64,000 nucleotides of DNA from an uncultured Planctomycetia bacterium (GTDB lineage Bacteria; Omnitrophota; Gorgyraeia; Tantalellales; Tantalellaceae): NCBI GenBank assembly GCA_964409365.1, contig CAYPCX010000001.1, positions 202,075 through 266,074 of the forward strand, read 5' to 3'. Numbering within the stretch: the first letter of the stretch is position 1; each line of letters begins with the position of its first letter. Both the position numbers and the translations under genes were made by a program. Under the pieces are notes generated by a model. The model searched no databases. It was not told the DNA's origin and saw nothing but the letters and a program-made list of their open reading frames with translations. Below are positions 1,911-58,707 of this stretch, piece by piece.

Positions 1911-2010
1911 GATGACAAGTTACAGAAGTCAGATGACAGAAGTCAGATTATCTGTTCTCTGTTTTCTGACCCCTGACTTCTGTTATCTGACATCTGTCTT
2001 CTGTCCTCTG
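1911..2010. repeat. Purine-rich/pyrimidine-rich mirrored hairpin element (GACAGAAG / CTTCTGTC family)
   Basis: The left half consists of cagaagtcagatgacagaagtcagat repeats. The right half consists of ctgttctctgttttctga...atctgtcttctgtcctctg. The element lies between the asd stop and the truA start. Confidence 0.6.
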
Positions 2011-2015
2011 AGAAC

Positions 2016-2750
2016 ATGCGTAATATCAAGTTGACGATAAGTTACGACGGTACGGGCTACAAAGGCTGGCAGGTCCAGGCCAACGGCACGACCGTCCAGG
2101 AAGTCCTCGAGAAAGCCATAGAGAAGGTCTCGGGCAGGCACTACCGTGTTCATGGCGCCAGCCGTACGGATGCCGGTGTTCACGCCAACGCGCAGGTCGC
2201 TCATTTCAAGACGCGATCCGCGATACCCGTCGGGAAAATACCCGTTGCGCTGAATGCCGTTCTTCCCGGGGACGTGGCCGTGGTCCGGGCCGAGGAAGTG
2301 CCGGAAGATTTTCACTCACGTTTCGACGCAAGATCGAAAATATACAGGTACTACGTGATGAATTCGGACAACAGGGACCCTTTCAGGGAAAAATATTCAT
2401 GGAGACTGCCGTACAATCTCAACGTGTCGCTGATGAAAAGGGAAGCTGCCAGGCTTCTCGGACGGCACGATTTCAGGTCCTTCCAGGCGAAAGATAAGAG
2501 GGAAAGGTCCTCGGTACGGAAAGTCTGTCGTATCGGTATCAAAAAGAAGAAAGATATTATAACAATCGAAATAGAAGCCGACGGTTTCGTGTACAATATG
2601 GCGCGGAATATCGTAGGAACGCTCATCGATATCGGAAGAGGGTACATGCCCCAAGGCAGCATGAAAAAGATACTGGGTACCAGGGACCGTACGACAGCGG
2701 GCCCGACGGCCCCGGCCAAAGGCCTCTTTCTCGTAGAAGTCAAATACTAA
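2016..2750 (+). CDS. truA: tRNA pseudouridine(38-40) synthase
   Basis: ISYDGTGYKGWQVQ and the RTDAGVHA catalytic Asp motif. Length is about 244 aa. Confidence 0.9.
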   Translation: MRNIKLTISYDGTGYKGWQVQANGTTVQEVLEKAIEKVSGRHYRVHGASRTDAGVHANAQVAHFKTRSAIPVGKIPVALNAVLPGDVAVVRAEEVPEDFHSRFDARSKIYRYYVMNSDNRDPFREKYSWRLPYNLNVSLMKREAARLLGRHDFRSFQAKDKRERSSVRKVCRIGIKKKKDIITIEIEADGFVYNMARNIVGTLIDIGRGYMPQGSMKKILGTRDRTTAGPTAPAKGLFLVEVKY

Positions 2751-2810
2751 CCCCACCCAAATAGCTAACTTTTTACATATTAACAATATTGTGTAACCCT
2801 TTTTCTTTTC

Positions 2811-2839
2811 TTGACAAGTATTTTATCTTGTTATATACT
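2811..2839 (+). promoter_or_regulatory. Sigma70-like promoter (TTGACA - 17 nt - TATACT)
   Basis: A consensus -35 and a near-consensus -10 sit 36 nt upstream of the small ORF at 2875. Confidence 0.45.
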
Positions 2840-2874
2840 TTCCCTATACTTGTTACATAAAAAGAGATCGCGCC

Positions 2875-3054
2875 ATGATAAGAAAACTCAGGTTCAAGTT
2901 CTACGCTACGGTTTCGGACAGGGGACAGATCTTTATCCCGAAAGTCCTTCAGGATTATTTCGGGATAAGGAATAGGGATAAAGTGGTTTTTAAAGTGCAG
3001 GATGACGGAAGTGTCGTATTTGAAAAGAAGAAGGGAGAAAAGGATGGGCAATAG
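2875..3054 (+). CDS. AbrB/MazE (SpoVT-AbrB swapped-hairpin) family small DNA-binding protein, 59 aa
   Basis: The pattern RGQIFIPKVLQDYFGIRNRDKVVFKVQDDGSVVFEKK matches the AbrB/MazE consensus (GRvvIP..lr..LgI..gD.l.i..dd.kiil.k). It is absent from the ORF track because it is shorter than 60 aa. Confidence 0.5.
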   Translation: MIRKLRFKFYATVSDRGQIFIPKVLQDYFGIRNRDKVVFKVQDDGSVVFEKKKGEKDGQ

Positions 3055-3223
3055 TAAACTGCACTCGCATAGGGTCACTCTGGGTGAAAGGCGAAGATCG
3101 AACAAGAAGAGAAGTGACATGCTCCGGAAGGGGGTGGATAAAGGGGAGCTCCAGCAAGTGTTCAACACTTATTACAAGGACCAGGTCAAGGCCTTGTACA
3201 GAGCCATTTTTAGAAATAAATAA
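3044..3223 (+). CDS. Small basic hypothetical protein (59 aa), overlapping the upstream AbrB-like gene by 11 nt
   Basis: ATG at 3044 is preceded by GGGAG. The product is rich in Arg/Lys. No family was recognised. Confidence 0.35.
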   Translation: MGNSKLHSHRVTLGERRRSNKKRSDMLRKGVDKGELQQVFNTYYKDQVKALYRAIFRNK

Positions 3224-3295
3224 TACTACGTATTTCGAGATATTCCTTAACCGGCGTTTGGTCAGCTGAGCGTTTGAGGGGCTTTTAAAGCCATT

Positions 3296-3391
3296 ACGGG
3301 AGAGCACAGAGTATCCCGTGCTCAAACAGTTTTTGCCCAGCGGCAGGAGCGACAGCAAAAAAACTGCGCCGGGACACTCTGTGCTATCCCG
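3296..3391. repeat. Long imperfect inverted repeat (about 21-bp arms, about 50-nt loop)
   Basis: GGGAGAGCACAGAGTATCCCG ... CGGGACACTCTGTGCTATCCCG, with two mismatches. It lies between the small cassette and the rplM promoter. Confidence 0.4.
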
Positions 3392-3468
3392 GATCAGCTA
3401 AAGAGCCCCGCTCAATACAGCTTAAACACCGGCAAGCAATATCCTGTAAAATCCCGCTATATTATTTA

Positions 3469-3497
3469 TTGACAAAACCCCCCAAATATGTTATTTT
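3469..3497 (+). promoter_or_regulatory. Sigma70-like promoter for the rplM-rpsI operon (TTGACA - 17 nt - TATTTT)
   Basis: Consensus -35 with a 17-nt spacer. It lies 55 nt upstream of the rplM start. A GGAGAG ribosome-binding site sits 6 nt before the ATG. Confidence 0.5.
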
Positions 3498-4392: not shown

Positions 4393-4418
4393 TCAGATTT
4401 ATCCGGAGAGGTTGCAAA

Positions 4419-4450
4419 GCAGGTCGCGTTTCCCGCGACCTGCTTTTTTT
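4419..4450 (+). terminator. Rho-independent terminator
   Basis: GCAGGTCGCG-tttcc-CGCGACCTGC followed by TTTTTTT. Confidence 0.7.
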
Positions 4451-5634: not shown

Positions 5635-6819
5635 ATGAACAAGTTGCCAAAGGGATTTTTTGCTAACGGCATCCATTGCGGCCTGAAAAAGAAGAGAAAA
5701 GACCTTGCGCTTTTCTATTCGGAGAAAGACTGCAAGGTGTCGGCGCTTTTTACCACTAACGTGGTAAAGGCCGCCCCGGTGATCCTGGGAATAGAGGCCG
5801 TTCGTAAGAAGAAGCCCGTAAAAGCGGTTTTGATAAACAGCGGGAACGCCAATTGTATGACCGGTTCGCGTGGTCTCGAGGACGCCAGGGATATGGCGGC
5901 CATGGCCGCGAAAGAGCTCGGTGTTCCTAAAACAGCGGTACTTGTCTCATCGACAGGGGTAATAGGCCAAGCGATGCCGATGGAGCCCTTTGAAAAAGGG
6001 ATCCACCGGCTTGTGAGGGGGCTTTCACGATCGGGACTTCATGACGCGGCCGAAGGGATAATAACGACCGACCGGTTCCCGAAGAAGATGACACGCACGT
6101 TCACCGCGGGCGGTAAGACGGTGACGATGACCGGTGTGGCGAAAGGCGCGGGGATGATACACCCGAACATGGCCACGATGCTCTGTTATGTCATGACGGA
6201 CGCGAACATAACGAAAAAAGCAATGGACAAGGCGCTTTTTTCGAGTGCGGAGGTATCTTTCAATGCCATTACCGTCGACGGGGACATGAGCACGAACGAT
6301 ACGGTCATGCTTCTCGCGAACGGAGAGGCCGGGAACAGGGTGATAGGAAATAGCGGCCGTGATCTTGCCGTGTTCCAGGAGAATCTCGACCAGGTCATGA
6401 AAGAGCTGGCGAAGATGATCGTCCGGGACGGTGAAGGCGCGAGCAAATTCATTGAAGTGCACGTAAAAGGCGCCAGGACGAAGACGGGAGCGAAAAAAGC
6501 GGCCGAAGCAATAGCAAGTTCCATGCTCGTCAAGTGCGCCGTTCAGGGAGGCGACCCCAACTGGGGGCGTATAGCTTCCTCGGTAGGTTCCAGCGGTATC
6601 CGGTTCGATCCGGACAAAATGGAGATAAAGATGGACGGCGTGACTTTTTTCAAAAAGGGGAGTGTGGTCTCTTCGAGAGAAGAGGAAACGGGGCACGTTT
6701 TCAAGGGGAAAGACGTTTCGATAGAAGTGAACCTTCATCGCGGGAAGAGCGAAGCTACGTTCTGCAGCTGCGATATCTCGAAAAGATATATCACGCTTAA
6801 CTCGTATTATACGACATGA
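5635..6819 (+). CDS. argJ: Bifunctional glutamate N-acetyltransferase / amino-acid acetyltransferase
   Basis: The self-cleavage-site region ATMLCYVMTDANI. Length is 394 aa. Confidence 0.95.
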   Translation: MNKLPKGFFANGIHCGLKKKRKDLALFYSEKDCKVSALFTTNVVKAAPVILGIEAVRKKKPVKAVLINSGNANCMTGSRGLEDARDMAAMAAKELGVPKTAVLVSSTGVIGQAMPMEPFEKGIHRLVRGLSRSGLHDAAEGIITTDRFPKKMTRTFTAGGKTVTMTGVAKGAGMIHPNMATMLCYVMTDANITKKAMDKALFSSAEVSFNAITVDGDMSTNDTVMLLANGEAGNRVIGNSGRDLAVFQENLDQVMKELAKMIVRDGEGASKFIEVHVKGARTKTGAKKAAEAIASSMLVKCAVQGGDPNWGRIASSVGSSGIRFDPDKMEIKMDGVTFFKKGSVVSSREEETGHVFKGKDVSIEVNLHRGKSEATFCSCDISKRYITLNSYYTT

Positions 6820-6820
6820 T

Positions 6821-6868
6821 TCAGAAGACAGAAAACAGATTATCTGACATCTGTCTTCTGTTATCTGG
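6821..6868. repeat. R/Y mirrored hairpin (CAGAAGACAGA ... TCTGTCTTCTG), same family as 1911-2010
   Basis: An 11-bp perfect stem immediately after the argJ stop. Confidence 0.6.
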
Positions 6869-7747: not shown

Positions 7748-7862
7748 ACTGAGGTTCTGGGGACACGTCTGTGTAGACAACATGTAAACGACAAAACTGA
7801 GGTTCTGGGGACACGTCTGTGTAGACAACATGTAAACGACCAGACGTGTCCCCAGAATATAT
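7748..7862 (+). terminator. REP-like terminator, tandem (left-arm half copy plus complete copy)
   Basis: actgaggttctggggacacgtctgtgtagacaacatgtaaacgac occurs twice. Only the second copy is completed by cagacgtgtccccagaatatatttc. Confidence 0.6.
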
Positions 7863-9976: not shown

Positions 9977-9990
9977 GGATGAATAATGGA

Positions 9991-10094
9991 AGTGTCAAAG
10001 TGTCATCGTGCGCTTACTAGTGTCAGAGTGTCAAAGACAGCACTATGACACTTTGACACTAGCGAACACAGTGAGCGATGATACTCTGACACTG
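9991..10094. repeat. About 103-bp complex palindromic element (GTGTCA/TGACAC family), copy 1
   Basis: AGTGTCAAAGTGTCA ... TGACACTTTGACACT 15-bp inverted arms plus nested AGTGTCAGAGT/ACTCTGACACT. It lies between argF and argG. Confidence 0.65.
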
Positions 10095-10109
10095 TAAAGG
10101 AGATAGATC

Positions 10110-11285
10110 ATGGCTAAAAAGAAAGTGGTGCTTGCATATTCCGGGGGGCTTGACACTTCCGTAGCCATAAAGTGGCTCATGGACCGGGGGTTCGACGTGA
10201 TCTGCTACATGGCCGATGTCGGCCAGGGACAGGATGCGCAAAGCGGCCGCAAGCGCGCGATGAAGATCGGCGCCAAGAAATGCATAGTGGGCGACCTCAG
10301 AAAAAAGTTCCTTACCGATTACGCTTTCCGCTCGCTGAAGGCGGGGGCGCTGTACCAGGGGAAATACAACCTTGCCACGGCCCTTTCCCGGCCCCTGATC
10401 GCCGAGGCCATGGTGGACGTGGCGAAAAAAGAGAAAGCGTATGCGGTATCCCACGGGTGTACGGGCAAGGGCAACGACCAGGTACGTTTCGAGGTCACGT
10501 TTCACGTAAAGGCCCCGAAGCTGAAGGTCATAGCTCCCGTAAGGGAGTGGGAGCTTACCACGCGCGAATCCGAGATAGATTACGCGAAAAAACACAAGAT
10601 ACCGATAGAACAAACAAAGAAGAAACTTTACAGTATAGACCGCAATCTTTGGGGCGTGAGTGTGGAAGGCGGCAAACTCGAAGATCCCTGGGTGGAGCCT
10701 CCGAAGGATACATATGTCAGCATAGCCCGGCCTGAAAAAGCGCCTGCAAAACCGGGCTTCGTAAAGGTATCTTTCCGGAAGGGCATACCGGTCGCCGTTA
10801 ACGGCAGAAAGTACGACCCTGTGCGCCTGGTGCAGAAGCTTAACGACCTGGGCGGAAAGCACGGTGTAGGGAGGGTCGACATGATAGAGGACCGCCTTGT
10901 GGGCATAAAGTCCCGCGAGATATATGAAGCGCCCGGGTCCGCGATACTTTTCGCGGCGCATTCGGCGCTCGAGGAACTTGTTCTCGACCGGGAGGTGCGC
11001 AAGTATAAACAGGTCCTGGCGGGGCGTTACGCCGAGATGGTCTATTACGGCCTTTGGTTCACTCCCCTGAAGGGGGAGTTGGACGCTTTCGTGGACAAGA
11101 CGCAGGAAAAAGTGACGGGTGAAGTGAAACTCAAGTTGTACAAGGGAAGCGTCACGGTTTGCGGCAGAAGAAGCGCGCATTCACTTTACAAGTTCGAATT
11201 GGCGACGTATGGCAAAGACGACATGTTCGACCAGTCGCTCGCCAAGGGCTTCATAGATCTCTGGGCAATGCCGTATAAAAAGTAA
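10110..11285 (+). CDS. argG: Argininosuccinate synthase
   Basis: VLAYSGGLDTSV PP-loop motif. Length is 391 aa. Confidence 0.95.
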   Translation: MAKKKVVLAYSGGLDTSVAIKWLMDRGFDVICYMADVGQGQDAQSGRKRAMKIGAKKCIVGDLRKKFLTDYAFRSLKAGALYQGKYNLATALSRPLIAEAMVDVAKKEKAYAVSHGCTGKGNDQVRFEVTFHVKAPKLKVIAPVREWELTTRESEIDYAKKHKIPIEQTKKKLYSIDRNLWGVSVEGGKLEDPWVEPPKDTYVSIARPEKAPAKPGFVKVSFRKGIPVAVNGRKYDPVRLVQKLNDLGGKHGVGRVDMIEDRLVGIKSREIYEAPGSAILFAAHSALEELVLDREVRKYKQVLAGRYAEMVYYGLWFTPLKGELDAFVDKTQEKVTGEVKLKLYKGSVTVCGRRSAHSLYKFELATYGKDDMFDQSLAKGFIDLWAMPYKK

Positions 11286-11308
11286 CAAGGATAAAGGAAA
11301 AAGTAACA

Positions 11309-11411
11309 AGTGTCAAAGTGTCATCGTGCGCTTACTAGTGTCAGAGTGTCAAAGACAGCACTATGACACTTTGACACTAGCGAACGCAGTGAGCGATGAT
11401 GCTCTGACACT
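11309..11411. repeat. About 103-bp complex palindromic element, copy 2 (about 97% identical to copy 1)
   Basis: The same sequence as 9991-10094 with three substitutions. It lies between argG and argH. Confidence 0.65.
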
Positions 11412-11426
11412 TAACAAGGAGTTACC

Positions 11427-14890: not shown

Positions 14891-15757
14891 ATGATAAAGG
14901 GTTCGTATGTAGCTATCGTTACGCCATTCAAGAACGGTAAGGTGGACGAGAAGGCGTTCCGCAAGCTTATAGAGTTCCATATAGACAAGGGAAGCGACGG
15001 TCTTGTGCCGTGCGGTTGCACCGGGGAAGCCGCCACGCTGAGCATGGCCGAGCAGAAACGGCTTATCAAGATAACCGTGGAGACGTCAGCGAGACGCATC
15101 CCGGTGATCGCCGGGACCGGCTCTAACAACACGGAAGAAGCGCTGGAGTTGACCACTTTCACCCGGAAGGCAGGATGTGACGGGGCGCTCATGATAACGC
15201 CTTATTACAACAAACCGACGCCGGAAGGGCAGTACCGGCATTACGCGAGAGTCGCCAGCAAGGTCGACATCCCCATAATGCTGTACAACGTTCCTTCACG
15301 GACGGGGATATCCATGTCCCCGGCCACGGTAGCGCGCCTCGCGAAGATAGATAATATTGTCGCGATAAAGGAGGCGGCCGGCAGCGTACAGCAAGTGATG
15401 GATATATTGAACCTCTGTGATATCACGGTGATGAGCGGCGATGACGCCATGACCCTTCCGTTCATGTCCGTGGGCGCGGCAGGCGTGGTAAGCGTGGTGG
15501 CCAATATCATCCCCGGCCGGGTGCACGATCTTGTCCAGACCTTTCTGGACGGCAGGACAGAGACCAGCCGCAATATCCATTATGGGATATTGGAATTGTG
15601 CAAGGCCATGTTCATCGAGACCAATCCCATACCCGTGAAAACAGCCCTCAGCATAATGGGCATGGTGAACGAGGAGTGGCGGCTTCCGCTTTGTGAGATG
15701 CGCAAAGAGAACAAGGAAGCGCTGAAAACGGTGCTGAAAAAGTTCAAATTAATTTAG
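14891..15757 (+). CDS. dapA: 4-hydroxy-tetrahydrodipicolinate synthase
   Basis: VAIVTPF, GTTGE-like CGCTGEAATL and the Schiff-base lysine region. Length is 288 aa. Confidence 0.9.
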   Translation: MIKGSYVAIVTPFKNGKVDEKAFRKLIEFHIDKGSDGLVPCGCTGEAATLSMAEQKRLIKITVETSARRIPVIAGTGSNNTEEALELTTFTRKAGCDGALMITPYYNKPTPEGQYRHYARVASKVDIPIMLYNVPSRTGISMSPATVARLAKIDNIVAIKEAAGSVQQVMDILNLCDITVMSGDDAMTLPFMSVGAAGVVSVVANIIPGRVHDLVQTFLDGRTETSRNIHYGILELCKAMFIETNPIPVKTALSIMGMVNEEWRLPLCEMRKENKEALKTVLKKFKLI

Positions 15758-15760
15758 GTT

Positions 15761-15836
15761 GCAGGTATCAGGTAGCAGGTGTCAGGCGGAGGGAGAAGAC
15801 CTGTTTTTTCCAAAGACCTGAAACCTGAGACCTGAC
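15761..15836. repeat. CAGGT-heptamer / ACCTG-heptamer mirrored hairpin element
   Basis: gcaggtatcaggtagcaggtgtcagg ... cctgaaacctgagacctgaca. Between dapA and dapB. Confidence 0.55.
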
Positions 15837-15849
15837 AAGGAGAGCATAC

Positions 15850-16600: not shown

Positions 16601-16672
16601 GGACTGAGGTTCTGGGGACACGTTTCTTGTAACGGCAGGGGAACGACGAAACATGTCCCCAGAATATATTTC
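16601..16672 (+). terminator. REP-like terminator, copy with a compensatory inner stem (GTTTC/GAAAC)
   Basis: ttctggggacacgtttc ... gaaacatgtccccagaatatatttc. The outer stem is conserved and the inner stem co-varies. Confidence 0.6.
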
Positions 16673-17875: not shown

Positions 17876-18376
17876 ATGGCGACGGCTTACCTTTGTATCG
17901 GATCGAACGTAGGGGATAAACGGTCGAACTGTGAAGAAGCCGTCAGGCGGTTACAGGCGGCCGGGGACATCAAGGTCCGGGCCCGGTCCGGTCTTTACAG
18001 GACGGAACCCGTAGGGGGCCCGCCCCAGGAAGAATACCTCAACGGTGCGCTCGGCATCGAGACAACGCTGTCTCCCGGGGATCTGCTCCGCGTCCTCAAG
18101 GATATCGAAAAGGACATGGGACGCAGAGAGACGAAAAAGAACCACCCCCGCATCATCGATATCGATATCCTTTTCTATGATGATCTGGTGATGAACTCCG
18201 AAGGGTTGACGATACCGCATCCCCGCGTACATGAAAGGTATTTTGCGCTGAAAGGGCTCGCGGAAATAGCTCCTTTTGCGTCGCATCCGGTCGTCGGCAA
18301 GACCGTGAGTGAGTTATACGAAGAGGTCGGGGAACAGAAGACAGAGGACAGAAAACAGAAAACAGAAACGAAATGA
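17876..18376 (+). CDS. folK: 2-amino-4-hydroxy-6-hydroxymethyldihydropteridine pyrophosphokinase
   Basis: AYLCIGSNVGD, RTEPVGGP and RIIDIDILFY motifs. The C-terminal tail EQKTEDRKQKTETK is encoded by a GACAGAA-type repeat. Confidence 0.85.
   Translation: MATAYLCIGSNVGDKRSNCEEAVRRLQAAGDIKVRARSGLYRTEPVGGPPQEEYLNGALGIETTLSPGDLLRVLKDIEKDMGRRETKKNHPRIIDIDILFYDDLVMNSEGLTIPHPRVHERYFALKGLAEIAPFASHPVVGKTVSELYEEVGEQKTEDRKQKTETK
18333..18370. repeat. Purine-rich half of the GACAGAA-type element, lying inside the folK 3' end
   Basis: cagaagacagaggacagaaaacagaaaacagaaacg. No pyrimidine-rich partner follows. Confidence 0.5.
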
Positions 18377-19224: not shown

Positions 19225-19290
19225 GATTCTGGGGACACGTCTGTGTAGACGACATGTAAACTACCAGACATGTCCCCAGAATATATTTCC
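19221..19290 (+). terminator. REP-like terminator copy (overlaps the panC stop codon)
   Basis: ctgagattctggggacacgtctgtgtagacgacatgtaaactaccagacatgtccccagaatatatttcc. Confidence 0.6.
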
Positions 19291-19300: not shown

Positions 19301-20284
19301 GTGATGAAAAGACCGGAGTTTGACGCGAAATACAAGGAACACCTGACCAGGAAGATACTGGACCTGAAGAAAGAAAAAGGGGCGCTTATCGTCGCCCATA
19401 ATTACCAGCGCGACGAGATACAGGATATTGCCGACATAACGGGCGATTCGTACGCCCTTGCCTGCAAGGTAGCTAAGGCGAAAGAGGAACTGGTGGTCTT
19501 CTGCGGCGTGAAGTTCATGGCGGAGAGCGCTTATATGCTTAGCCCGGGAAAGACGGTGCTGCTCCCGGTCGAGGAAGCGGGATGCCCGCTCGCTGATATG
19601 ATCACCGTGGAGAAGCTCAAACAGAAGAGGCAGGAGTATCCGGAAGCCGCGGTAGTATGCTACGTGAACTCTTCGGCGGCGGTCAAGGCGGAAAGCGATA
19701 TATGCTGCACCTCGTCCAACGCCATACAGATCGTCAGATCCCTGAAGGAAGAGAAGGTGATCTTCGTGCCCGATAGGAACCTCGGAAGGTACGTGAGAGA
19801 GCGCGTTCCGGAAAAAGACGTGATACTATGGGACGGCTACTGCATCGTGCACAAGCGCCTGACCAAAGAAGAAGTGCTGGGGACTAAGAAACTGCACCCC
19901 GAAGCCGAGTTCATAGTGCATCCCGAGTGTCAAAAGGAGGTGCTTGACCTTGCCGACTATATAGGAAGCACGGCGGGTATGATAAAGTACGTAAAGGAAT
20001 GTCCGCGCAAGGAATTCATCATCGGCACTGAAATGGGTATCATATATCGTCTTAAGCACGACAATCCGGAAAAACAGTTTTATGTTCCGGCCGACCATTT
20101 TATATGCGCCAATATGAAGCTGACGACCCTGGGATGGCTGGCAAGGTCCCTGGAGAAGGAGATCTACAAAATAGAGGTCCCCGAGGGTGTGGCGGCAAAG
20201 GCCCGCAAGGCGCTCCAGAGGATGGTAGACGTTACCGAGAACCAGATGACAGATGACAGACGTCAGAAGACAGAAGACAGATGA
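19301..20284 (+). CDS. nadA: Quinolinate synthase A
   Basis: LIVAHNYQ, FCGVKFMAE and the three Cys ligands. The C-terminal tail ENQMTDDRRQKTEDR is encoded by a repeat. Confidence 0.9.
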   Translation: MMKRPEFDAKYKEHLTRKILDLKKEKGALIVAHNYQRDEIQDIADITGDSYALACKVAKAKEELVVFCGVKFMAESAYMLSPGKTVLLPVEEAGCPLADMITVEKLKQKRQEYPEAAVVCYVNSSAAVKAESDICCTSSNAIQIVRSLKEEKVIFVPDRNLGRYVRERVPEKDVILWDGYCIVHKRLTKEEVLGTKKLHPEAEFIVHPECQKEVLDLADYIGSTAGMIKYVKECPRKEFIIGTEMGIIYRLKHDNPEKQFYVPADHFICANMKLTTLGWLARSLEKEIYKIEVPEGVAAKARKALQRMVDVTENQMTDDRRQKTEDR

Positions 20285-20323
20285 CAGGATTACTCTTTTC
20301 TGTTCTCTGTCCTCTGTTTTCTG
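20244..20323. repeat. R/Y mirrored element (CAGAAGA heptamers / TCTGTYC heptamers), spanning the nadA stop
   Basis: cagatgacagatgacagacgtcagaagacagaagacagatgacagg ... cttttctgttctctgtcctctgttttctg. Confidence 0.55.
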
Positions 20324-22900: not shown

Positions 22901-22949
22901 AGTTCCCGGAAATCCTGTCACTTACGTAAGTTGTTTCCCCCGCATCCTA

Positions 22950-23117
22950 CTTGCCCCTCGGCGTGGATACGACGTGCAGGATAAGTTCGACCACATAACT
23001 TATGTTCACTTCGTTCCATAAGTTATGGTCTCACTTGCCCCTTGGCGTGGATACGACGTGCAGGATAAGTTCGACCACATAACTTATGTTCACTTCGTTC
23101 CATAAGTTATGGTCTCA
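22950..23117. repeat. Exact tandem duplication of an 84-bp unit (2 copies, 1 mismatch), each with an internal 11-bp hairpin
   Basis: cttgcccctYggcgtggatacgacgtgcaggataagttcgaccacataacttatgttcacttcgttccataagttatggtctca occurs twice. Each unit begins with a -35-like TTGCCC. Confidence 0.8.
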
Positions 23118-23118
23118 C

Positions 23119-23146
23119 TTGACTTTTTTCACTTCTTTTGTATAAT
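23119..23146 (+). promoter_or_regulatory. Sigma70 consensus promoter (TTGACT - 16 nt - TATAAT)
   Basis: Located immediately after the tandem repeat and 60 nt upstream of the IMPDH-like gene. Confidence 0.5.
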
Positions 23147-29565: not shown

Positions 29566-31358
29566 GGATGATACGCACACACACTTGCGGTGAATTAACG
29601 GCAAAGGACATCAAAAGGGATGTCGTGCTTTGCGGGTGGATAGTCGCCAGAAGGGATCACGGCGAGATAATCTTCATGGACCTCTGGGACAAGCACGGCA
29701 TGACGCAGATCGTCTTTGACCCCGAAGAGAACAAGACAGCTCATGAAAAAGCCCATCAGCTGCGCAATGAGTACTGCGTGAAGATCTATGGCAAGGTCGC
29801 TAAAAGGCCCGAAGGCACGATCAACCCGAAAATAACGACAGGCGAGATCGAAATAGACGTGGACAAAATAGAAGTTCTTTCCGAATCCGACACGACCCCG
29901 TTCGAGATAAGGGAAGACTGGGGAAAGAAGAATATCTCGGAAGAGGTCCGTCTCAAGTACAGGTATCTGGACCTCAGACGTCCCTCGATGCTGGAGAGGC
30001 TCCGCATAAGGCATAAGGTCTGCAAGTCTTTCTCCGATTTCCTTGACGGGGAGGGTTTTATATCGGTGGAAACGCCCATGCTCACCAAGTCCACCCCGGA
30101 AGGAGCAAGGGATTATCTGGTGCCCTGCAGGATACAGCAGGGCAGTTTCTACGCGCTTCCGCAGTCGCCGCAGATATTCAAACAGCTTCTCATGGTAGGG
30201 GGGGTCGAAAAATATTTCCAGATAGTCAGATGTTTCCGCGATGAGGATCTCCGCGCCGACAGACAACCGGAGTTCACGCAGCTCGACATGGAGATGTCGT
30301 TCGTCGAACAGGACGACATTTTCGACGTTTGCGAACGCATGTTCAAAAAGCTTTTCAAGGACGTAGCGGGAGTGGATATAAAGATCCCTTTCCGGAGGAT
30401 GGATTATGACGAAGCGATGGACCGTTACGGCAGCGATAAACCGGACACGCGTTTCGATCTTTTCCTGCATGACCTGGCCGGGGAGGTGAAAGATTGCGAT
30501 TTCAAGATATTCAGGGACGTCCTCGCCGCGGGAGGCAGGGTGATGGGGCTCGCCGCGCCGGGTTACGGCGGGATAAGCAGGAAAGAGATAGATGACCTTA
30601 CTTCTTTTGCCGCCGATCACGAAGCCCGGGGGCTGGCGTATTTCAAGGTGGAAGAAAACGGACTCGTTTCCCCGGTCGCGAAGTTCTTCTCTAAAGGAAC
30701 GCTTGAGGCCCTGCGCGAGAGGACCGGCGCGAAGACGGGCGACATGATATTCATGGTCGCCGACGCCGACAAAGATATCGCGCGCGGAGCGCTCGGCGCT
30801 CTAAGGCTCAAGATCGGCAGGGACAAGGGTTTAATAGACCAGGACAGGTTCGACCTTCTCTGGGTGGTTAACTTCCCGCTTTTCAAGTGGAACAGGGATG
30901 AGAAGAGATGGGTATCGGAACACCACCCGTTCACGTTGTTCAGGGAAGAGGACATGGAGTTCCTGGACAAGGGCGAGCTCGATAAGGTCAGGTCGCTGTC
31001 CTATGACTGCGTCCTGAACGGGAGCGAGATAGCTTCGGGCAGCATAAGGATACACAGGAGGGACATACAAAAGAAGATATTCGACACGCTCGGCCTGACA
31101 AAGGAGGAGTGCGAAGTAAAGTTCGGCTTCCTGCTGGAAGCCTTCAAGTATGGCCCTCCTCCGCACGGGGGGCTGGCTTTCGGTATAGACAGGCTGATAA
31201 CCATGTTCACGAAGGACCAGTCTATCCGTGAGGTCATCCCGTTCCCCAAGACGCAGAAAGGCGTTTGCCCTCTTACCGGGGCGCCGACACCGGTGGATAA
31301 CAAACAGCTCGGGGAATTGGGACTGAAGTTAGTAAAAGCGAGAAACAATGACAAATGA
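29566..31358 (+). CDS. aspS: Aspartate--tRNA ligase
   Basis: N-terminal OB fold (RTHTCGEL...GWI), the FRDEDLRADRQPEFTQLD motif 2 and the GGLAFGIDRL motif 3. The ATG at 29566 is preferred over the upstream ORF-track start. Confidence 0.9.
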
Positions 31359-31404
31359 CAAAATCCAAATGACAAAAGTTTTGTCATTTGTGCTTTGATA
31401 TCTG
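31346..31404. repeat. AATGACA heptamer repeats plus an AAATGACAAAAG/TTTTGTCATTT hairpin, overlapping the aspS stop
   Basis: aatgacaaatgacaaaatccaaatgacaaaagttttgtcatttgtg. Confidence 0.5.
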
Positions 31405-31425
31405 TCATTAACAAAGGGGGACGGT

Positions 31426-35084: not shown

Positions 35085-35496
35085 TCTTTCAAAAGCGAAG
35101 AAAGTAGCCGAGACCGTATTGAAGACCTTCGGCAAAAAAGACGCCGTGGTGAACATTGTCTTTATCAGCAACCAGAAGATAAGGGCGCTCAACCGCATGT
35201 ATCTCGGCAAGGACTCTTCGACGGATGTCCTTGCCTTCCCGAGCGGGGATACTGCGGGTCTCAGGTCTCAGGTCTCAGGTCTCAGGAAAGGTTTTCTGGG
35301 GGACGTGGCGATATCGTCGGACAAAGCGGCCGGGAACGCCGGGGAATACGGCACTGCTTTCAAAGAGGAAATAGCCCTTTACGTGATACACGGGGTCCTG
35401 CACCTCCTGGGGTACGATGACAGGACGAAAAAAAGCAGAAAAGTTTTACAGCGAAAAGAACATGAGCTCCTACAAAAAGCAAAAGCAGTCATATAG
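35035..35496 (+). CDS. ybeY: Endoribonuclease YbeY (rRNA maturation factor)
   Basis: HGVLHLLGYDD zinc-binding motif. It contains an in-frame (GGTCTCA)x4 heptamer insertion (GLRSQVSGLRKG). Confidence 0.85.
   Translation: MRITVNCENRNRRRKVDLSKAKKVAETVLKTFGKKDAVVNIVFISNQKIRALNRMYLGKDSSTDVLAFPSGDTAGLRSQVSGLRKGFLGDVAISSDKAAGNAGEYGTAFKEEIALYVIHGVLHLLGYDDRTKKSRKVLQRKEHELLQKAKAVI
35257..35286. repeat. (GGTCTCA)4 heptanucleotide tandem repeat inside the ybeY CDS
   Basis: gggtctcaggtctcaggtctcaggtctcagg. The same motif occurs in intergenic CAGGT-family elements. Confidence 0.7.
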
Positions 35497-36190
35497 AGGC
35501 GACACTTTTTTCCACAGCGTCTCCGCGGCCCTGGAGGGGATAGTGCACGTGCTCAAGCAGGAGCGCAGTATGCGCCTGCATTTTCTCATAGGTTTTCTTG
35601 TCGTCATAATGGGCATCTACCTGGGGCTGAGCTCGGTAGAGTTCATGATCCTCTGTCTCGCCGTGAGCTTTGTCCTGGTGTCAGAGATGGTCAACACCGC
35701 CATCGAGCATTTTGTGGACATTATGAGGGAAGAGTTCCATCCCGTGGCCAAGATCGTAAAGGATATAGCCGCGGCCGCGGTGTTCGTCAGCGCCGTGAAC
35801 GCGACCATAGTAGGATATTTTCTGATAATAAAACAGCTGGATTTCGGACTGAAGGATTCCTTTCTGAGGATCAAGCAGTCGCCGTGGCATATAACGCTGA
35901 TAGCTCTTCTGATAGTCGTGGGACTGGTGCTTTTTGTTAAAATATTGCGCGGCGAAAGATCGCTCTTGAGGGGCGGAATGCCCAGCGGGCATACCGCCGT
36001 GGCGTTCGCGATATGGACGGCGGTCTCACTGGTGACCGGGAATATCCTGGTGAGCGTGCTGGTGCTTTTGCTTGCCCTTATTATCGCGAGAAGCCGGCTG
36101 ATAAACGGATTGCACACGCTGTGGGAGATCATAGCCGGGGCATTTCTGGGCACTTTGGTGACGCTCTTGGTGTTTCAGTTACTTTCGTAA
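35417..36190 (+). CDS. dgkA: Diacylglycerol/undecaprenol kinase (DgkA) fused to a C-terminal PAP2-family phosphatase domain
   Basis: The N-terminal half matches prokaryotic DgkA (three TM helices; SEMVNTAIE). The C-terminal half carries PAP2 motifs PSGH and SRLINGLHTLWE. The start could be the ATG at 35462. Confidence 0.7.
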   Translation: MTGRKKAEKFYSEKNMSSYKKQKQSYRGDTFFHSVSAALEGIVHVLKQERSMRLHFLIGFLVVIMGIYLGLSSVEFMILCLAVSFVLVSEMVNTAIEHFVDIMREEFHPVAKIVKDIAAAAVFVSAVNATIVGYFLIIKQLDFGLKDSFLRIKQSPWHITLIALLIVVGLVLFVKILRGERSLLRGGMPSGHTAVAFAIWTAVSLVTGNILVSVLVLLLALIIARSRLINGLHTLWEIIAGAFLGTLVTLLVFQLLS

Positions 36191-36220
36191 AGTATCGAGT
36201 ATCAAGTATCAAGTATCAAG
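36191..36220. repeat. (AGTATCR)4 heptanucleotide tandem repeat
   Basis: agtatcgagtatcaagtatcaagtatcaagg, directly after the dgkA stop. Confidence 0.7.
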
Positions 36221-36239
36221 GGTTGAGGAGGAGATAGAG

Positions 36240-38976: not shown

Positions 38977-39032
38977 CCAAGAACATACATCGGGTGTATA
39001 ATAATACACCCGATGTATAAACAAAAGGAGGA

Positions 39033-41816: not shown

Positions 41817-41830
41817 AGAAAGGATAGGTC

Positions 41831-41920
41831 GCAGGTATCAGGTCTCAGGTGTTAGGGTAAAGAAGAAGACGTGTCTTTATCCAACGGCCTGAAACCTGGA
41901 ACCTGAAACCTGAAACCTGA
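41831..41920. repeat. CAGGT-heptamer / CCTGAAA-heptamer mirrored hairpin element (same family as 15761-15836)
   Basis: gcaggtatcaggtctcaggtgttagg ... cctgaaacctggaacctgaaacctgaaacctga. It ends 2 nt before the sigma-factor ATG. Confidence 0.55.
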
Positions 41921-41922
41921 AT

Positions 41923-42792: not shown

Positions 42793-42836
42793 GGTGGTTT
42801 TTTAGTTGTTAGTTATGTAAAGCGAGTTTAACAGGG

Positions 42837-43100
42837 GTCCCCGTAGCTAAATGAGACTACAAGTTACGGGAGCGAAGCAGCCGTAACTTGTAAAGTCGAA
42901 TTTATGCAAAGCGTTTAAACTAGCGTCCCCGTAGCTAAATGAGGCCACAACTTAAGGAGCGAAGCGAACAGAAGTTGTAAGGCCGAATTTATGCGAAGCA
43001 GGTTCAACTGGTGTCCCCGTAGCTAAATGAGGCCACAACTTAAGGAGCGAAGCGAACAGAAGTTGTAAGGCCGAATTTATGCGAAGCAGGTTCAACTGGT
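42837..43100 (+). repeat. Three tandem 88-bp structured repeat units, each beginning with the first 12 nt of the downstream tRNA-Arg
   Basis: The GTCCCCGTAGCT anchors lie at 42837, 42925, 43013 and 43101, an exact 88-nt period. Units 2 and 3 are identical. Unit 1 differs, and its changes keep both the inner and outer hairpin stems base-paired. Confidence 0.85.
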
Positions 43101-43177
<77 letters not shown>

Positions 43178-43185
43178 TAAATTAA

Positions 43186-43217
43186 AAAGGCTCATTAACC
43201 TATGAGCCTTTTTTTTG
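43186..43217 (+). terminator. Rho-independent terminator after tRNA-Arg
   Basis: GGCTCAT-taacct-ATGAGCC followed by TTTTTTTT. Confidence 0.65.
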
Positions 43218-55963: not shown

Positions 55964-56992
55964 TTAGATAAGGTATTCTTCGAATTCATCCGCGTTCACC
56001 ATGACCGGTCCCGTCAGGCAGTCATCCCCGAAGATATCTCCCGTGACCGGCGACAATTCCGCCAAGAGCCGCGAACCTTTGGTTTCCACCGTCATCTGAA
56101 CGGAACCGTCAGAGCGGTATACCACGCTTTTTTCTTTCGCCCCCCTGACCACGCCGTGCACCTTCTTTTTAACGACTTCTTCCTTTTCGGCGTAATTTTC
56201 GAGCGTAGTCCCGGAATCTATGACAACGCCGTAGATCTTAGCGGCGAGGTTCCTGTAAGCGTCAGCACGGGCGGCGCGTTTCGCGGAAACAAGAATCTCG
56301 GCGCCGAACATCTCAAGATATTCTTTTTCGCTGATAACATGCGGAGCGGGCAGTATTTCTTTATTCGGGGCGAAACCTGTACCTTCCGCGCTCAGGACGG
56401 TCTTTTTCCAGGGAGAGATCTCTCTTTCCTCGTTCTTTTTTACCACGGCTGATTTATCCGGGTCGCTGACGCTGCTCAGCACTACGGAGTTCTGCGCGAC
56501 AGCTACGCGTGTCAGGGACTTTTGCTTCCGTGAGGTGACCTTGTATCTGGTGCCTCTGGCGCCGCAGGTGGCGTTGGGAGTGCGTATCTCAAACTCTGAT
56601 CCGCGGGGAAGGTCTGCCAGCGATGAAAGGACCGTCCCGTCGATCAGTTCTATTTTCTCGCCGTCTTTCAGTTTCAGGACCACAAAGGTATCGGGCTGGA
56701 CCTTCACCACGTTGCTTTTTTTATCGTTGAAAGCTAATTCCGCCGAAGACAGCTCATTCGTTCTGATACTATCGCCGGTCCGCAGGGTCATACCTTCACG
56801 GGCGTCTTTCCAGACGGTATGGCCGCTTGGGAGCACCTTCACGGTGCCTGAGATGTTGAACACCAGGACAGAAGAGGAGCTTTCAGCAGGTTCGGCGAAA
56901 CACGGGAAGGTGAAAGAAAGACAGAAGACCAGGAGTGACGCCAAAGTTCTCAGGCAGATATTTTTAATTTTCATAAGCATATACATAGACAC
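55964..56992 (-). CDS. FecR-domain protein with a C-terminal LPP20-like domain
   Basis: Signal peptide. FecR-like core (GTVKVLPSG...EFEIRTPNATCGARGTRYKV). The C-terminus (ARADAYRNLAAKIYGVV...) resembles the N-domain of the 53814 lipoprotein. Confidence 0.6.
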   Translation of the reverse strand: MSMYMLMKIKNICLRTLASLLVFCLSFTFPCFAEPAESSSSVLVFNISGTVKVLPSGHTVWKDAREGMTLRTGDSIRTNELSSAELAFNDKKSNVVKVQPDTFVVLKLKDGEKIELIDGTVLSSLADLPRGSEFEIRTPNATCGARGTRYKVTSRKQKSLTRVAVAQNSVVLSSVSDPDKSAVVKKNEEREISPWKKTVLSAEGTGFAPNKEILPAPHVISEKEYLEMFGAEILVSAKRAARADAYRNLAAKIYGVVIDSGTTLENYAEKEEVVKKKVHGVVRGAKEKSVVYRSDGSVQMTVETKGSRLLAELSPVTGDIFGDDCLTGPVMVNADEFEEYLI

Positions 56993-57938
56993 CGTCCACC
57001 AACTGGTAGTCCGAAAGGTGATGATCGGCCCAGCCGCATATCTGGTCGGGGGTCAGGGTATGCCAGGACCCGTAAAAACCGCGGTAGTAAGGGAAGTCAT
57101 AGTAGTTTCTGTACATCACATAGTACTTGTACTTTTCCCGTTCTTTGTCATTTGCCTTTGTCGCGGCCAGATATTCCATCTTTGACGATATTTCCTTGTC
57201 AGCTGAAGCGCGCATCGTCTTCTGGGCCTCGACGCTTATCTTTCCGGGGCCCGCCACGCTTTCGCCGTAAGGTTCCCATCCCGGCGGGGGAGGGGTGTGC
57301 CCTTTTCTGATGTATCCGAAGTTCTTGGCCATCAGGGAATATTCCCCGTACAGTTCCATATTGCCGGTCTTTCTGGCCAGTTCCGCGAACGCGGCGGCGG
57401 CGGCGCCGGATCCCGAAGAGAGCACGGTCTTTTTTGCCGCGGCCAGGTATTTTTCAAGCATTTCCTTTTTTTCGATCTTGTGAAGAGCTTCAGTGGCCTC
57501 CAGAAGGCCCCTCCAGTCCTTTTTATCACGGGCGATCTTGAAAGCGGCCTTAAGGGCTGAGACCGCCTTGTTCTTTACCGCAAGGCTTTCGGGAAGGCTT
57601 GCGTAGGAGTACGAGGCCGCGACAAGCCCCCGCCAGTCCCGCCGTGACAAGGCTATCCTGCGGGCTTTATCTAAGGGGGAGACGGATCTTCTGGGTTTCC
57701 CCAGGGCGGAGAAGGCATTACCCGTGTCGACAAGTCCCTTCCAGTTCTTTGCTTTAGCGGCGTAAGCGGCGCTTTTGGAAAAATGGTCCAGGGCACTGCG
57801 GGTATCGTTCCGTCCGGCGGCGAGATATCCTCTTGCCAGAGCGTCTTCCATTTTCTGGAGGTCCGCATCAGCGGCAAGGACGGACGTACCGAAGACAAGA
57901 AGCAAGAAACATGTAAAAAAGAGTTTGTTCATTTTCAA
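56964..57938 (-). CDS. Secreted helical-repeat protein (W-[KR]-G-L repeats)
   Basis: Signal peptide. Repeated NWKGLVDTGNAFSALG / DWRGLVAASYSYASL / DWRGLLEATEALHKI units. It overlaps the FecR gene start by 29 nt. Confidence 0.5.
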   Translation of the reverse strand: MKMNKLFFTCFLLLVFGTSVLAADADLQKMEDALARGYLAAGRNDTRSALDHFSKSAAYAAKAKNWKGLVDTGNAFSALGKPRRSVSPLDKARRIALSRRDWRGLVAASYSYASLPESLAVKNKAVSALKAAFKIARDKKDWRGLLEATEALHKIEKKEMLEKYLAAAKKTVLSSGSGAAAAAFAELARKTGNMELYGEYSLMAKNFGYIRKGHTPPPPGWEPYGESVAGPGKISVEAQKTMRASADKEISSKMEYLAATKANDKEREKYKYYVMYRNYYDFPYYRGFYGSWHTLTPDQICGWADHHLSDYQLVDGVYVYAYEN

Positions 57939-57957
57939 ATTTATTATAAAATTTAAT

Positions 57958-58638
57958 ATGAAAATAGTAAATCAAAAAGTTACAACAGCTAAAACTATGG
58001 GATTAGAAGGCGCGATCAAAAAAAAGTTCGATGCTTGGACTTTGGGGCTAAACCGGGAAGAAAGCCTTATCAGGATATTCGAAAAAGTAAGGGATATACC
58101 GTTCGCCGTGGACAATGAACTTTTCGATCTTGAAAAAGGCCCTGTCAGGATGCTTGAGCGCAATAAAGGTTTTTGCGTCCCGAAGCATTATCTCCTGGGG
58201 ATGATGTTCCATGAGCTGGGCGTTCCGGTGAAGTACTGCACCTATGCTTTCAACTGGGGCGAACAGAGGATCGATTATCCCGAGCGGCTGAAGGAGCTGG
58301 CCCGGAGAATACCGGCCACATACCATCTGGCATGCAGGGCTTTTCTCGGCGGCAAATGGGTGTTCATAGACGCTACATGGGACCCGCCCCTCAAGAAAGC
58401 CGCTTTTGATGTGAACGAGAACTGGGACGGCAGGAGCGATATGGCGAATGCCGTAAAGCCTTTAGATGAGTTTGTCCATGAGGATGCTTCGGAAAGAGAA
58501 AAGGCGTTCGGCGAAAAACTAAAGAATTACACCCTGTCCGAAAAACTTGAACTTTCCAGGTTTTCCATAGAGCTTAACAGATGGCTTGAGGAAGTCAGGT
58601 CTCAGGCCCCAGGTCGCAGGCCTGGGGGACAAGCGTGA
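57958..58638 (+). CDS. Transglutaminase-like (papain-fold Cys-His-Asp) domain protein
   Basis: GFCVPKHYLL catalytic Cys context, with the downstream H and D (FIDATWD). The ATG at 57958 is chosen so as not to overlap the convergent gene. Confidence 0.55.
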   Translation: MKIVNQKVTTAKTMGLEGAIKKKFDAWTLGLNREESLIRIFEKVRDIPFAVDNELFDLEKGPVRMLERNKGFCVPKHYLLGMMFHELGVPVKYCTYAFNWGEQRIDYPERLKELARRIPATYHLACRAFLGGKWVFIDATWDPPLKKAAFDVNENWDGRSDMANAVKPLDEFVHEDASEREKAFGEKLKNYTLSEKLELSRFSIELNRWLEEVRSQAPGRRPGGQA

Positions 58639-58676
58639 AGCCATATTGTATTTTTAGTCCATTCATGATAGACTTT

Positions 58677-58707
58677 CACCTGAAACCTGAGACTTGAAAC
58701 TTGAAAC
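58677..58707. repeat. Pyrimidine-strand half of the CCTGAAA heptamer element
   Basis: cacctgaaacctgagacttgaaacttgaaac. No CAGGT partner lies upstream. Confidence 0.4.

Follow-up and report, generated by a model that had tools for sequence, protein, structure and literature searches.

Many gene junctions in a bacterium of the uncultured phylum Omnitrophota carry short arrays of 7-nt units, and usually the complement of the array follows a little further downstream. We analysed these heptad elements in a window of 64,000 nt (contig CAYPCX010000001.1, positions 202,075 to 266,074 of the forward strand), for which a preliminary description had reported heptad-built hairpins at gene boundaries, and in related and unrelated loci. 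The elements repeat with a period of 7 nt, are built around a YAG triplet (Y, pyrimidine), reach from the stop codon of one gene to the ribosome-binding site of the next, and fall into families. They are present at some and missing from other orthologous sites, differ by whole units, and occasionally lie inside genes. The reading that we favour, with somewhat more confidence than doubt, is that they form a lineage-wide class of small dispersed insertion-type palindromes, comparable to repetitive extragenic palindromic (REP) sequences and miniature inverted-repeat transposable elements (MITEs), whose heptad arms carry a YAG core and which are tolerated as intercistronic stem-loops.

Heptad arrays, their YAG core and their layout

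Tandem Repeats Finder (TRF) reported arrays of period 7 or 14, with 2.7-6.4 copies, at 11 sites of the window (Table 1), and reading together with TRF placed 7-nt tandem units at or very near every coordinate named in the preliminary description. A strict self-match scan of periods 2-24 gave a signal at 7 and its multiple 14 alone: period 7 had 6 segments that together spanned 209 nt, whereas 20 dinucleotide shuffles gave 0 nt, and with relaxed thresholds it spanned 496 nt where 2.1 were expected. Period 7 is over-represented both relative to other periods and relative to chance, and the shuffles rule out chance or composition as its source. Lag 7 was also the best self-match, with at least 45% identical positions, in 7 of the 18 co-directional spacers of 49-160 nt. 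The window units (CAGRNNN, CAGGTNN, AATGACA and AGTATCR) have 2 degenerate positions and come in short runs of 3-9; with at least three head-to-tail copies of a 7-nt unit, the arrays are heptanucleotide repeats of the type known as long simple sequence repeats (LSSR) or short tandemly repeated repetitive sequences (STRR).

An assembly artefact is ruled out, as the arrays are identical in the ENA assembly and several Logan assemblies, and the pattern occurs in dozens of independent metagenome-assembled genomes. All other assemblies of the source organism, sought by exact-protein look-ups and a metagenome scan, were 100% identical over the arrays; the scan otherwise gave only relatives at no more than 73% protein identity. 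Two Logan short-read contigs of the source organism (L002 and L003; L-numbers are locus labels) start or end inside repeat elements, at window positions 11356 and 18363, consistent with elements that are multi-copy in the genome and break assemblies.

What do the units have in common? Nine of the 11 arrays fit one formula, (YAG-N4)n, with (N4-CTR)n on the complementary side. The window matches YAG-N4-YAG-N4-YAG-N4-YAG 24 times where 0.04 matches are expected, and 23 of these 24 lie within nine elements. Among arrays from Omnitrophota-like loci, 40 of 94 (~43%) hold a conserved YAG/CTR triplet against 15.3 +/- 3.4 expected, and control triplet sets stay at expectation (16 for YGA/TCR and 12 for GAY/RTC), whereas arrays from non-Omnitrophota loci show no excess (5 of 61, 10.3 expected). 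The suspicion that something sequence-specific unites the arrays, as opposed to a collection of unrelated hairpins, is borne out by (i) the formula shared by nine arrays; (ii) the limitation of YAG/CTR enrichment to Omnitrophota-like arrays; and (iii) the recurrence of the same families in distant genomes, found in the comparison with relatives that had been proposed. Unit mismatches cluster in two of the seven phases (0.693 vs 0.596 +/- 0.014), a figure to which two-unit (14-nt) duplications, which do occur, may contribute. Units were compared as exact canonical units, since clustering at one mismatch chained all units by single linkage and was uninformative.

We considered whether the heptads simply provide stops in all three frames. 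All three frames are stop-covered in 33% of array-bearing spacers versus 9% of others, and TAG occurs 12, 12 and 13 times at +7, +14 and +21 after the stop, against a background of about 7. This is a tendency only: half of the conserved cores are CAG and the TGA/CGA (YGA) control is not enriched, so stop-codon supply cannot explain the core and is ruled out as a general cause. The YAG arm is the upstream one in every paired element examined except one (from L006), and about 8 solo arrays carry YAG on the sense strand against 2 with CTR, as counted after manual reclassification of mis-called pairs.

Seven sites have reverse-complement arms (marked as paired in Table 1). Every element had at first been taken for a hairpin, which holds for these seven and fails for the AGTATCR array at 36190. 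An apparent half copy at 58677 proved to have a partner arm at 58595-58622, 63 nt upstream. The arms, earlier called mirrored, are inverted repeats and not mirror repeats; triplex (H-DNA) and quadruplex structures were rejected for this reason and because the window units contain no G-runs. The common layout begins with the stop codon and the YAG arm, continues through the centre to the complementary arm, and closes with the ribosome-binding site. In paired elements the preceding gene's stop codon either marks the beginning of the upstream arm or lies within it, and downstream arms in the window end 1-21 nt before the next start, leaving the Shine-Dalgarno (SD) sequence unpaired. One strand is indeed purine-rich, as first described, with purine fractions of 0.57-0.72 in the 5′ half and 0.30-0.51 in the 3′ half of all seven window hairpins. 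The GACA/TGTC core proposed at the same time applies to a subset: it is 5.5-fold enriched over 16 intergenic elements, in counts inflated by repetition inside elements, and is found mainly in the CAGA family and in the REP-like and octamer families described below, but is nearly absent from the CAGGT family.

The paired elements are predicted to form imperfect stem-loops of about 25-40 base pairs, composed of 5-6-bp helices with 1-2-nt mismatches at every seventh position, and the seven hairpins fold at z -2.1 to -7.5 relative to dinucleotide shuffles. Pairing of the arms is of similar quality in several in-phase registers and shows no unit-by-unit covariation, and the RNAalifold consensus of one family found in relatives (the TAGCG family, see below) has 24 pairs and no compensatory change. 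Because multiple registers pair alike and compensatory change is lacking, selection for one particular structure is not supported. Fold energies summed to -987 kcal/mol for the sense and -964 kcal/mol for the antisense strand, with similar numbers of G-U pairs, and RNA-specific selection was ruled out as a signal on account of this lack of asymmetry. A search of the whole window against Rfam 15 at the gathering threshold matched only tRNA-Arg (43101-43174) and no heptad element.

Table 1. Heptad elements of the window; all are given on the + strand, with the arms, neighbours and tests that define them.
Position	TRF array span	Element	Location	Arms and further features	Evidence
1911..2012	1922-2011	CAGA-family hairpin, paired	asd/truA spacer	5′ arm 1911-1949, about 5 CAG-N4 units; 3′ arm 1951-2012, 9 CTG-N4 units, stops 4 nt short of truA ATG (2016)	TRF, inverted pairs, Pfam neighbours; RNA fold -43.6 kcal/mol, z -5.0
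6819..6868	6842-6867	CAGA-family hairpin, paired	argJ/argB spacer	begins at argJ stop codon (6817-6819); SD GAGG and ATG 6892 unpaired	TRF, inverted pair, fold z -2.6
11276..11311	11276-11311	A-rich heptad array, TAAAAAG/AAAGGAA type	right after argG stop	no complementary arm; similar A-rich heptad arrays in L009 and L048	TRF
15755..15838	15756-15835	CAGGT-family element, paired	dapA/dapB spacer	5′ arm TAGGTTG CAGGTAT CAGGTAG CAGGTGT CAGG, first unit = dapA stop TAG; 23-nt centre; 3′ arm of 3 ACCTGRR units, then SD AAGGAG, ATG 15850	TRF, fold z -4.0
18332..18373	18333-18368	solo CAGARRA heptads (AACAGAA x5)	3′ end of folK	no partner arm; translated as non-conserved FolK C-terminal tail (EQKTEDRKQKTETK); ends at folK/panC ATGA overlap	TRF
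20240..20323	20243-20323	CAGA-family hairpin, paired	nadA/aspartate-dehydrogenase-like gene	5′ arm of 7 CAG-N4 units, encodes NadA tail and includes its stop (20282-20284); 3′ arm of 4 CTG-N4 units, then SD GGGAG	TRF, fold z -3.5
31346..31409	31347-31376	AATGACA-type hairpin, paired	spacer between aspS and unknown open reading frame (ORF)	31-nt arms, 81% complementary; heptad-periodic without YAG core; aspS stop inside arm	TRF, fold z -2.1
35253..35289	35257-35286	perfect CAGGTCT x4.3 array	inside ybeY	no partner arm; in frame, encodes GLRSQVSGLR in a loop	TRF 100% matches, Pfam YbeY
36188..36224	36190-36220	solo AGTATCR x4.4	dgkA/PAP2 stop (TAA, 36188-36190) to SD of DUF502 gene	no complementary arm, no YAG core; spacer fold no better than shuffles	TRF 91% matches
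41824..41922	41832-41921	CAGGT-family element, paired	spacer between ppdK and sigma-70-family gene	5′ arm of 5 YAGGNNN units; 3′ arm of 5 ACCTGRA units; ends 1 nt before ATG 41923, no SD there	TRF, Pfam; fold -47.4 kcal/mol, z -7.5
58592..58712	58681-58709	CAGGT-family element, long centre, paired	3′ end of ORF 57775-58638 to SD GGAGG of PHP-domain gene	5′ arm CAGGTCT CAGGCCC CAGGTCG CAGGCC (58595-58622), in the ORF; 3′ arm ACCTGAA ACCTGAG ACTTGAA ACTTGAA (58677-58712), before the SD	TRF, inverted pair 80% complementary, fold z -2.1, Pfam

Three arrays of the window are read as protein. FolK ends in ~14 array-encoded residues, and its relatives align only to residues 1 to about 150 of 166; the same holds for ~13 terminal residues of NadA, where relatives align to residues 1-311 of 326. 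In YbeY, the loop encoded by the perfect array is 6-8 residues shorter in the Aquifex protein (alignment to PDB 1oz9). An in-gene heptad array (GACGARR / AGCCGAA) also lies at orthologous positions in two relatives (L087 7193-7220 and L088 5949-5984), with equal total length and a different unit, and a similar array is found in L017 (15765-15798).

Families and turnover among relatives

The DapL-type aminotransferase of the window best matches that of Ca. Aadella gelida (76% identity), and the closest genomes are those of Candidatus Omnitrophota. Our comparison set comprised 39 Omnitrophota-like loci (642 kb) and 42 loci of other phyla. The Omnitrophota-like loci hold 78 period-7 arrays versus 10 of period 6 and 16 of period 8; the other phyla have 26 of period 7, which does not exceed the 31 of period 8. 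Density varies among the loci: arrays are plentiful in L004-L010 and scarce or missing in L011-L013, L016 and L018-L019. Mirrored heptad pairs outside Omnitrophota were few: they were seen, for example, in the deltaproteobacterial locus L038 and in L119 and L120, metagenome contigs with no taxonomic assignment. Arrays lie mostly between co-directional genes, those on the 5′ side starting at or over the stop codon and those on the 3′ side ending 5-25 nt before the start. Array and stop codon share the same phase in 13 of 21 cases, compared with 15% for other phases.

Gene order from argJ to dnaE is kept in ten relatives, with spacers of 0 to about 400 nt. A heptad array often opens the long syntenic spacers, at the stop codon, and its complement closes them, before the SD sequence. 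Units at the same junction usually differ from those of the window; at folK/panC, for example, AACAGAA in the window contrasts with AACTTAC in L007. The arms in relatives sometimes enclose other, nested repeats. One such repeat is a dispersed palindrome of about 150 nt (GTCATCCCGA ... TCGGGATGAC), which lies between or beside heptad arms in L004 (6740-7009 and 14823-15033) and is also present in L009 (310-527) and L011 (13641-13781). Its nesting suggests that spacers accumulate successive insertions.

The elements belong to at least two dispersed families plus singletons and not to one family. Within the window, the copies at 41824 and 15755 align through their non-repetitive centres at 84% mean column identity, and three copies in L010 have a common 34-nt centre. 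In being multi-copy imperfect palindromes in intergenic DNA, with arms and centres common within a genome, the elements resemble REP sequences and REPINs. One family that spans genomes is the TAGCG element: its two copies in L088 and those in L048 and L020 can be aligned over ~80 nt, 47-48 columns being invariant. At least three of these four copies lie at different junctions (argF/argG and lysA/dapF in L088, nadA/aspartate dehydrogenase in L048). A covariance model of this element found more copies solely in Omnitrophota-like loci and in IMG/VR contigs that had been chosen for the unit.

Do whole elements come and go? L087 and L088 are 85% identical in DNA, and two ~90-nt TAGCG elements of L088 (2284-2381 and 6236-6333) are missing from L087, where the genes at the corresponding junctions overlap by ATGA. 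The elements combine terminal inverted repeats with presence or absence at orthologous sites, as MITEs do. Unit number varies as well: homologous copies differ by whole units (L020 versus L048), and the arms of one element may be unequal. Arm units number 4/5, 7/4 and 3/6 in L010, and the 3′ arms at 15755 and 41824 of the window have 3 and 5 units.

The same heptads occur in viral contigs of 35-64% G+C, which were scanned with two units. L200 (IMGVR_UViG_3300039412_000416), a phage-like contig of 64% G+C, has nearly all of its junctions between 35 and 10095 occupied by YAG-heptad arrays or mirrored pairs, with the units CAGGGAA, AACCTGA, TAGCTNC/GCTAGAA, CAGGGGT and CAGGTTT. Its genes include a DUF5131/phrog_2045 member, most of its ORFs are of unknown function, and a search for its relatives among annotated phages gave no match. 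Two further IMG/VR contigs have longer runs: about 20 perfect CAGGTTT/AACCTGA units at 11955-12100 of L192, and several CAGGTTT/AACCTGA arrays separated by T-runs at 2365-7790 of L198 (35% G+C). This unit therefore also makes long satellites outside Omnitrophota-like contexts.

How the elements may arise and persist

How would such elements spread and be kept? We propose that they settle at junctions of co-directional genes, which would be the only permissive places in a compact genome and whose flanking genes are probably co-transcribed. The arms would then acquire or drop entire heptads, replication slippage being the likeliest route, and each element may fold into an imperfect stem-loop, either as part of the transcript or as single-stranded DNA. 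The elements would be tolerated, most likely as selfish or near-neutral DNA, because an incoming element (i) brings a stop codon, (ii) keeps the ribosome-binding site free, and (iii) would fold the extra ~50-100 nt into a stem. Since such a fold would tuck away the inserted spacer, the upstream stop and the downstream start could stay close. An effect on expression, if any, might resemble that of a REP-type intercistronic stem-loop, acting as an mRNA-decay barrier or as an RNase III-type processing site. Within this proposal, the comparisons among relatives support dispersal and the slippage of units.

Several points weigh against the insertion-type palindrome. Folding in vivo and an effect on expression are steps that we infer, and there is no RNA-specific signature, because both strands fold equally and their G-U counts are alike. 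The L088 insertions have no clear target-site duplication and look more like the replacement of about 15 nt, and a Pfam scan of 20 window ORFs showed no transposase or mobilising gene, the ORFs being housekeeping or of unknown function; nor did an autonomous insertion-sequence partner turn up in the sequence at hand. An ~80-nt element is kept in genomes whose DapL is only about 60-70% identical to that of the window, which suggests constraint or recent transfer. The two-phase clustering of mismatches fits recognition of a core, and a purely selfish or structural model predicts neither the YAG core nor the rule that the YAG arm comes first.

These last features lead to the first alternative, in which the upstream arms are RNA operators for a hypothetical protein that reads YAG every 7 nt, much as hexameric HutP reads XAG triplets. 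Binding would block pairing of the arms and place dozens to hundreds of hairpins in the genome and its phages under common control. We consider this unlikely, while giving it more credit than any other alternative. It would unify the arrays, as (YAG-N4)n of at least 4 units, by a triplet enriched in this lineage only and beyond what stop-codon supply can account for (the CAG half of the cores, the unenriched TGA/CGA control). The YAG arm comes first, an order needed if a protein must bind before the hairpin forms; the solo arrays have their weak sense-strand bias, and mismatches cluster in two phases. Whole elements are conserved across deep divergence, the 64% G+C phage-like contig has the same units at nearly every junction, and HutP offers a precedent, with XAG motifs at 7-nt spacing along a hairpin's 5′ side (PMC2425495). 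However, the protein remains hypothetical and without a candidate, the arrays at 31346 and 36190 lack YAG, and a conserved YAG/CTR is present in only about 43% of Omnitrophota arrays. Folding and G-U pairs show no sense/antisense asymmetry, and regulation of this kind would be hard to understand for the arrays that lie in coding sequences. The wider claim, that (YAG-N4)n are sites of a 7-nt YAG reader working HutP-like on nascent RNA, or less probably on DNA, as a genome-wide punctuation of Omnitrophota and some of their phages, seems to us more doubtful again. If true, one factor could set the relative expression of cistrons in very long operons, and at least part of the bacterial heptanucleotide excess would have a concrete cause.

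Could the arrays instead be ordinary heptanucleotide microsatellites? In-situ slippage would create them, quasi-palindrome template switching would make the two arms alike, and neither mobility nor function would be involved. Among long simple repeats, heptanucleotides are reported to be the most abundant class in many bacteria, with polymerase slippage as the proposed cause (PMC4679880, PMC4692102); a perfect array sits inside ybeY, homologous copies differ by whole units, many registers pair equally without unit-by-unit covariation, and both strands fold equally well. We nevertheless find this improbable. Copies at different junctions have common non-repetitive centres and a common order of unit variants, whole elements are present or absent between close relatives, the same units occur in genomes of 35-64% G+C, and YAG enrichment is lineage-specific.

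Strand symmetry and the equal folding of both strands would also suit duplex-DNA sites, bound by a protein that recognises contiguous 7-bp units whichever way they face, like the omega/ParB repressor of pSM19035. Contiguous runs of at least 4 direct and inverted heptads are what omega requires (PMC9499535), and the CAGA family comes near the consensus of the paired sites of G. metallireducens, which consist of five MTYCTGA on opposite strands (PMC2700814). Yet the elements lie between genes that are probably co-transcribed, away from the window promoters; core sequences differ between families within a genome, so that one protein could read at most YAG; and no candidate protein is known. We regard this explanation as very improbable. 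Least probable of all, long stable stem-loops exactly at gene boundaries, in a window where 11 of the 18 co-directional spacers (49-160 nt) hold a hairpin at z <= -4, might be unconventional terminators or attenuators without a U-tract that divide long gene arrays, but the terminator scan lists no heptad hairpin while finding canonical stem-plus-T-tract sites at 4416-4446 and 43184-43213, the elements split pathways that are tightly linked or overlapping in relatives (argJ/argB, dapA/dapB, folK/panC), and no strong promoter lies downstream of them.

Setting in the window and comparison with known repeats

Nearly all genes of the window lie on the + strand, and GC skew and AT skew are both positive throughout (1-64000), the coding strand being purine-rich; because of this, the orientation of the elements relative to transcription cannot be separated from that relative to replication. 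From argC to the aspartate-dehydrogenase-like gene, over about 17 kb, our scans found no canonical terminator or strong promoter; promoters of the form TTGACA-17-TATACT lie at 2811 and 4489. None of the heptad hairpins is followed by a T-tract in these scans.

Heptad elements are one of several kinds of intercistronic hairpin, as the other strong ones are REP-like or built from octamers. A separate REP-like family (TTCTGGGGACACGTCTG ... CAGACGTGTCCCCAGAA) occupies four other spacers, at 781-834, 7755-7857, 16610-16664 and 19226-19282, and its copy at 7748-7840 includes a perfect 48-nt tandem duplication. Hairpins of the GGGGACAC type occur in spacers of the relatives L004, L005, L010, L012, L048 and L084. 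Two 108-nt elements, 97% identical, stand on either side of argG (9990-10097 and 11308-11414) and consist of tandem octamers (AGTGTCAA) and their complements, a heptad-like architecture with period 8. A perfect 15-bp AT-rich hairpin (ACAUCGGGUGUAUAAUAAUACACCCGAUGU, 38985-39018, z -7.3) just upstream of the ppdK SD sequence is unrelated to the heptad families. Two longer tandem repeats differ in copy number between assemblies: an 84-nt repeat (22949-23121, 2.1 copies, 98% matches) upstream of an IMPDH-like gene has one copy fewer in L001, an ENA assembly of the source organism, and an 88-nt repeat (42826-43177, 3.3 copies) has one copy fewer in L164, the same contig in ENA. The latter reaches the 5′ end of tRNA-Arg(CCT) (43101-43177) and may have been left behind by an integration event at this gene.

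How do the heptad elements relate to repeats already described? The REP sequences, together with bacterial interspersed mosaic elements (BIMEs) and REPINs, are likewise short, dispersed, imperfect palindromes that lie in intergenic, including intercistronic, positions and form stem-loops. REPs can stabilise upstream mRNA and are mobilised by REP-associated tyrosine transposases (RAYTs). They have a GTAG-type head and no tandem heptads, whereas the elements here have no constant head tetranucleotide; no RAYT (Y1 transposase) was found among the window ORFs scanned against Pfam. The STRR units of heterocystous cyanobacteria are CCCCAGT, TTGGTCA and CAACAGT, and the window units, from an omnitrophotan, match none of these.

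A heptanucleotide excess has been known since 2007 and has no agreed cause; the few case studies each cover one unit in one group. In many bacteria no class of long simple repeats is more abundant than the heptanucleotides, for which polymerase slippage has been suggested as the cause (Mrazek et al. 2007, as cited in PMC4679880 and PMC4692102). The periodicity of the window had been called unusual; it is far beyond chance, but a 7-nt period in itself is not new, because heptanucleotide repeats were already reported to be common. According to these sources, LSSR and STRR, including those of Calothrix PCC 7601, resemble the present arrays as tandem 7-nt units that are over-represented and mostly intergenic, with no function assigned and slippage proposed. 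The arrays described here differ from them in being short and degenerate, with a lineage-specific YAG and usually a complementary pair that brackets the spacer, and in forming dispersed families with conserved centres in Omnitrophota. Thus a vague statistical excess becomes an alignable set of elements with empty and filled sites, whose families extend across an uncultured phylum and phage-like contigs. The arrays also matter for annotation, since they supply stop codons, add tails (FolK, NadA), insert into loops (YbeY) and break short-read assemblies.

Comparable in position are the TAACTGA arrays of Beggiatoaceae, which lie near starts, contain stops and overlap gene ends only slightly (PMC4679880). 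They comprise 2-6 copies a few nucleotides upstream of starts in marine Beggiatoaceae, some Cyanobacteria and Bacteroidetes (MacGregor 2015, PMC4679880), and a post-transcriptional binding protein (S1, Csp or CsrA) has been proposed for them (PMC4679880). The reverse complement, TCAGTTA, contains YAG. Unlike the elements here, with many unit families and mostly complementary pairs, TAACTGA is a single unit, with one inverted set in 170 and no predicted stem-loop (PMC4679880). Comparable in arrangement are the class 3 sites of G. metallireducens, tandem heptanucleotides in opposite-strand pairs between biosynthetic genes such as proB-proA; 8 pairs, given in a supplementary alignment, were read as sites of DNA-bending proteins, with 'global regulators' proposed (PMC2700814). 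These concern one genome, and neither a phylum-wide pattern nor a YAG rule was noted. A three-unit MTYCTGA consensus, used in place of the Geobacter alignment itself, has 6 matches at 3 mismatches in the window versus 0.06 expected (in the elements at 1911, 20240 and 41824) and no exact match.

Other heptad systems share single features. In the hut terminator of B. subtilis, HutP recognises the A and G of XAG at 7-nt spacing (U498, U505, U512; PMC2425495), and its sites, like the upstream arms here, place three or more XAG triplets, with 4 nt between them, along the 5′ side of a hairpin (PMC2425495); they form two sets of three triplets in one Bacillus operon, as against what would be many sites per genome, with 3-9 units, in a phylum that is not known to have a HutP relative. 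The omega sites of pSM19035 are also at least 4 contiguous 7-bp units, direct and inverted (PMC9499535), but they serve a plasmid as promoter and centromere sites and have one consensus, read in duplex DNA, whereas the present elements are chromosomal, lie off promoters and use many units. Intergenic heptamer arrays of Xanthomonas and Nostoc (GGGAATC / GGGGAYT) include some inverted pairs (PMC4692102), and those of Xanthomonas occupy the same gene junctions in related species, where they vary extensively in both length and sequence (PMC4692102); they are G-rich and can form quadruplexes, whereas the window units are free of G-runs. Our literature search turned up no description of such arrays for Omnitrophota, which does not disprove that one exists. 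Relative to the known heptad repeats, what is new here is the YAG rule, the mirrored architecture that runs from stop codon to ribosome-binding site, the dispersal of multiple families, and the phylum in which they occur.

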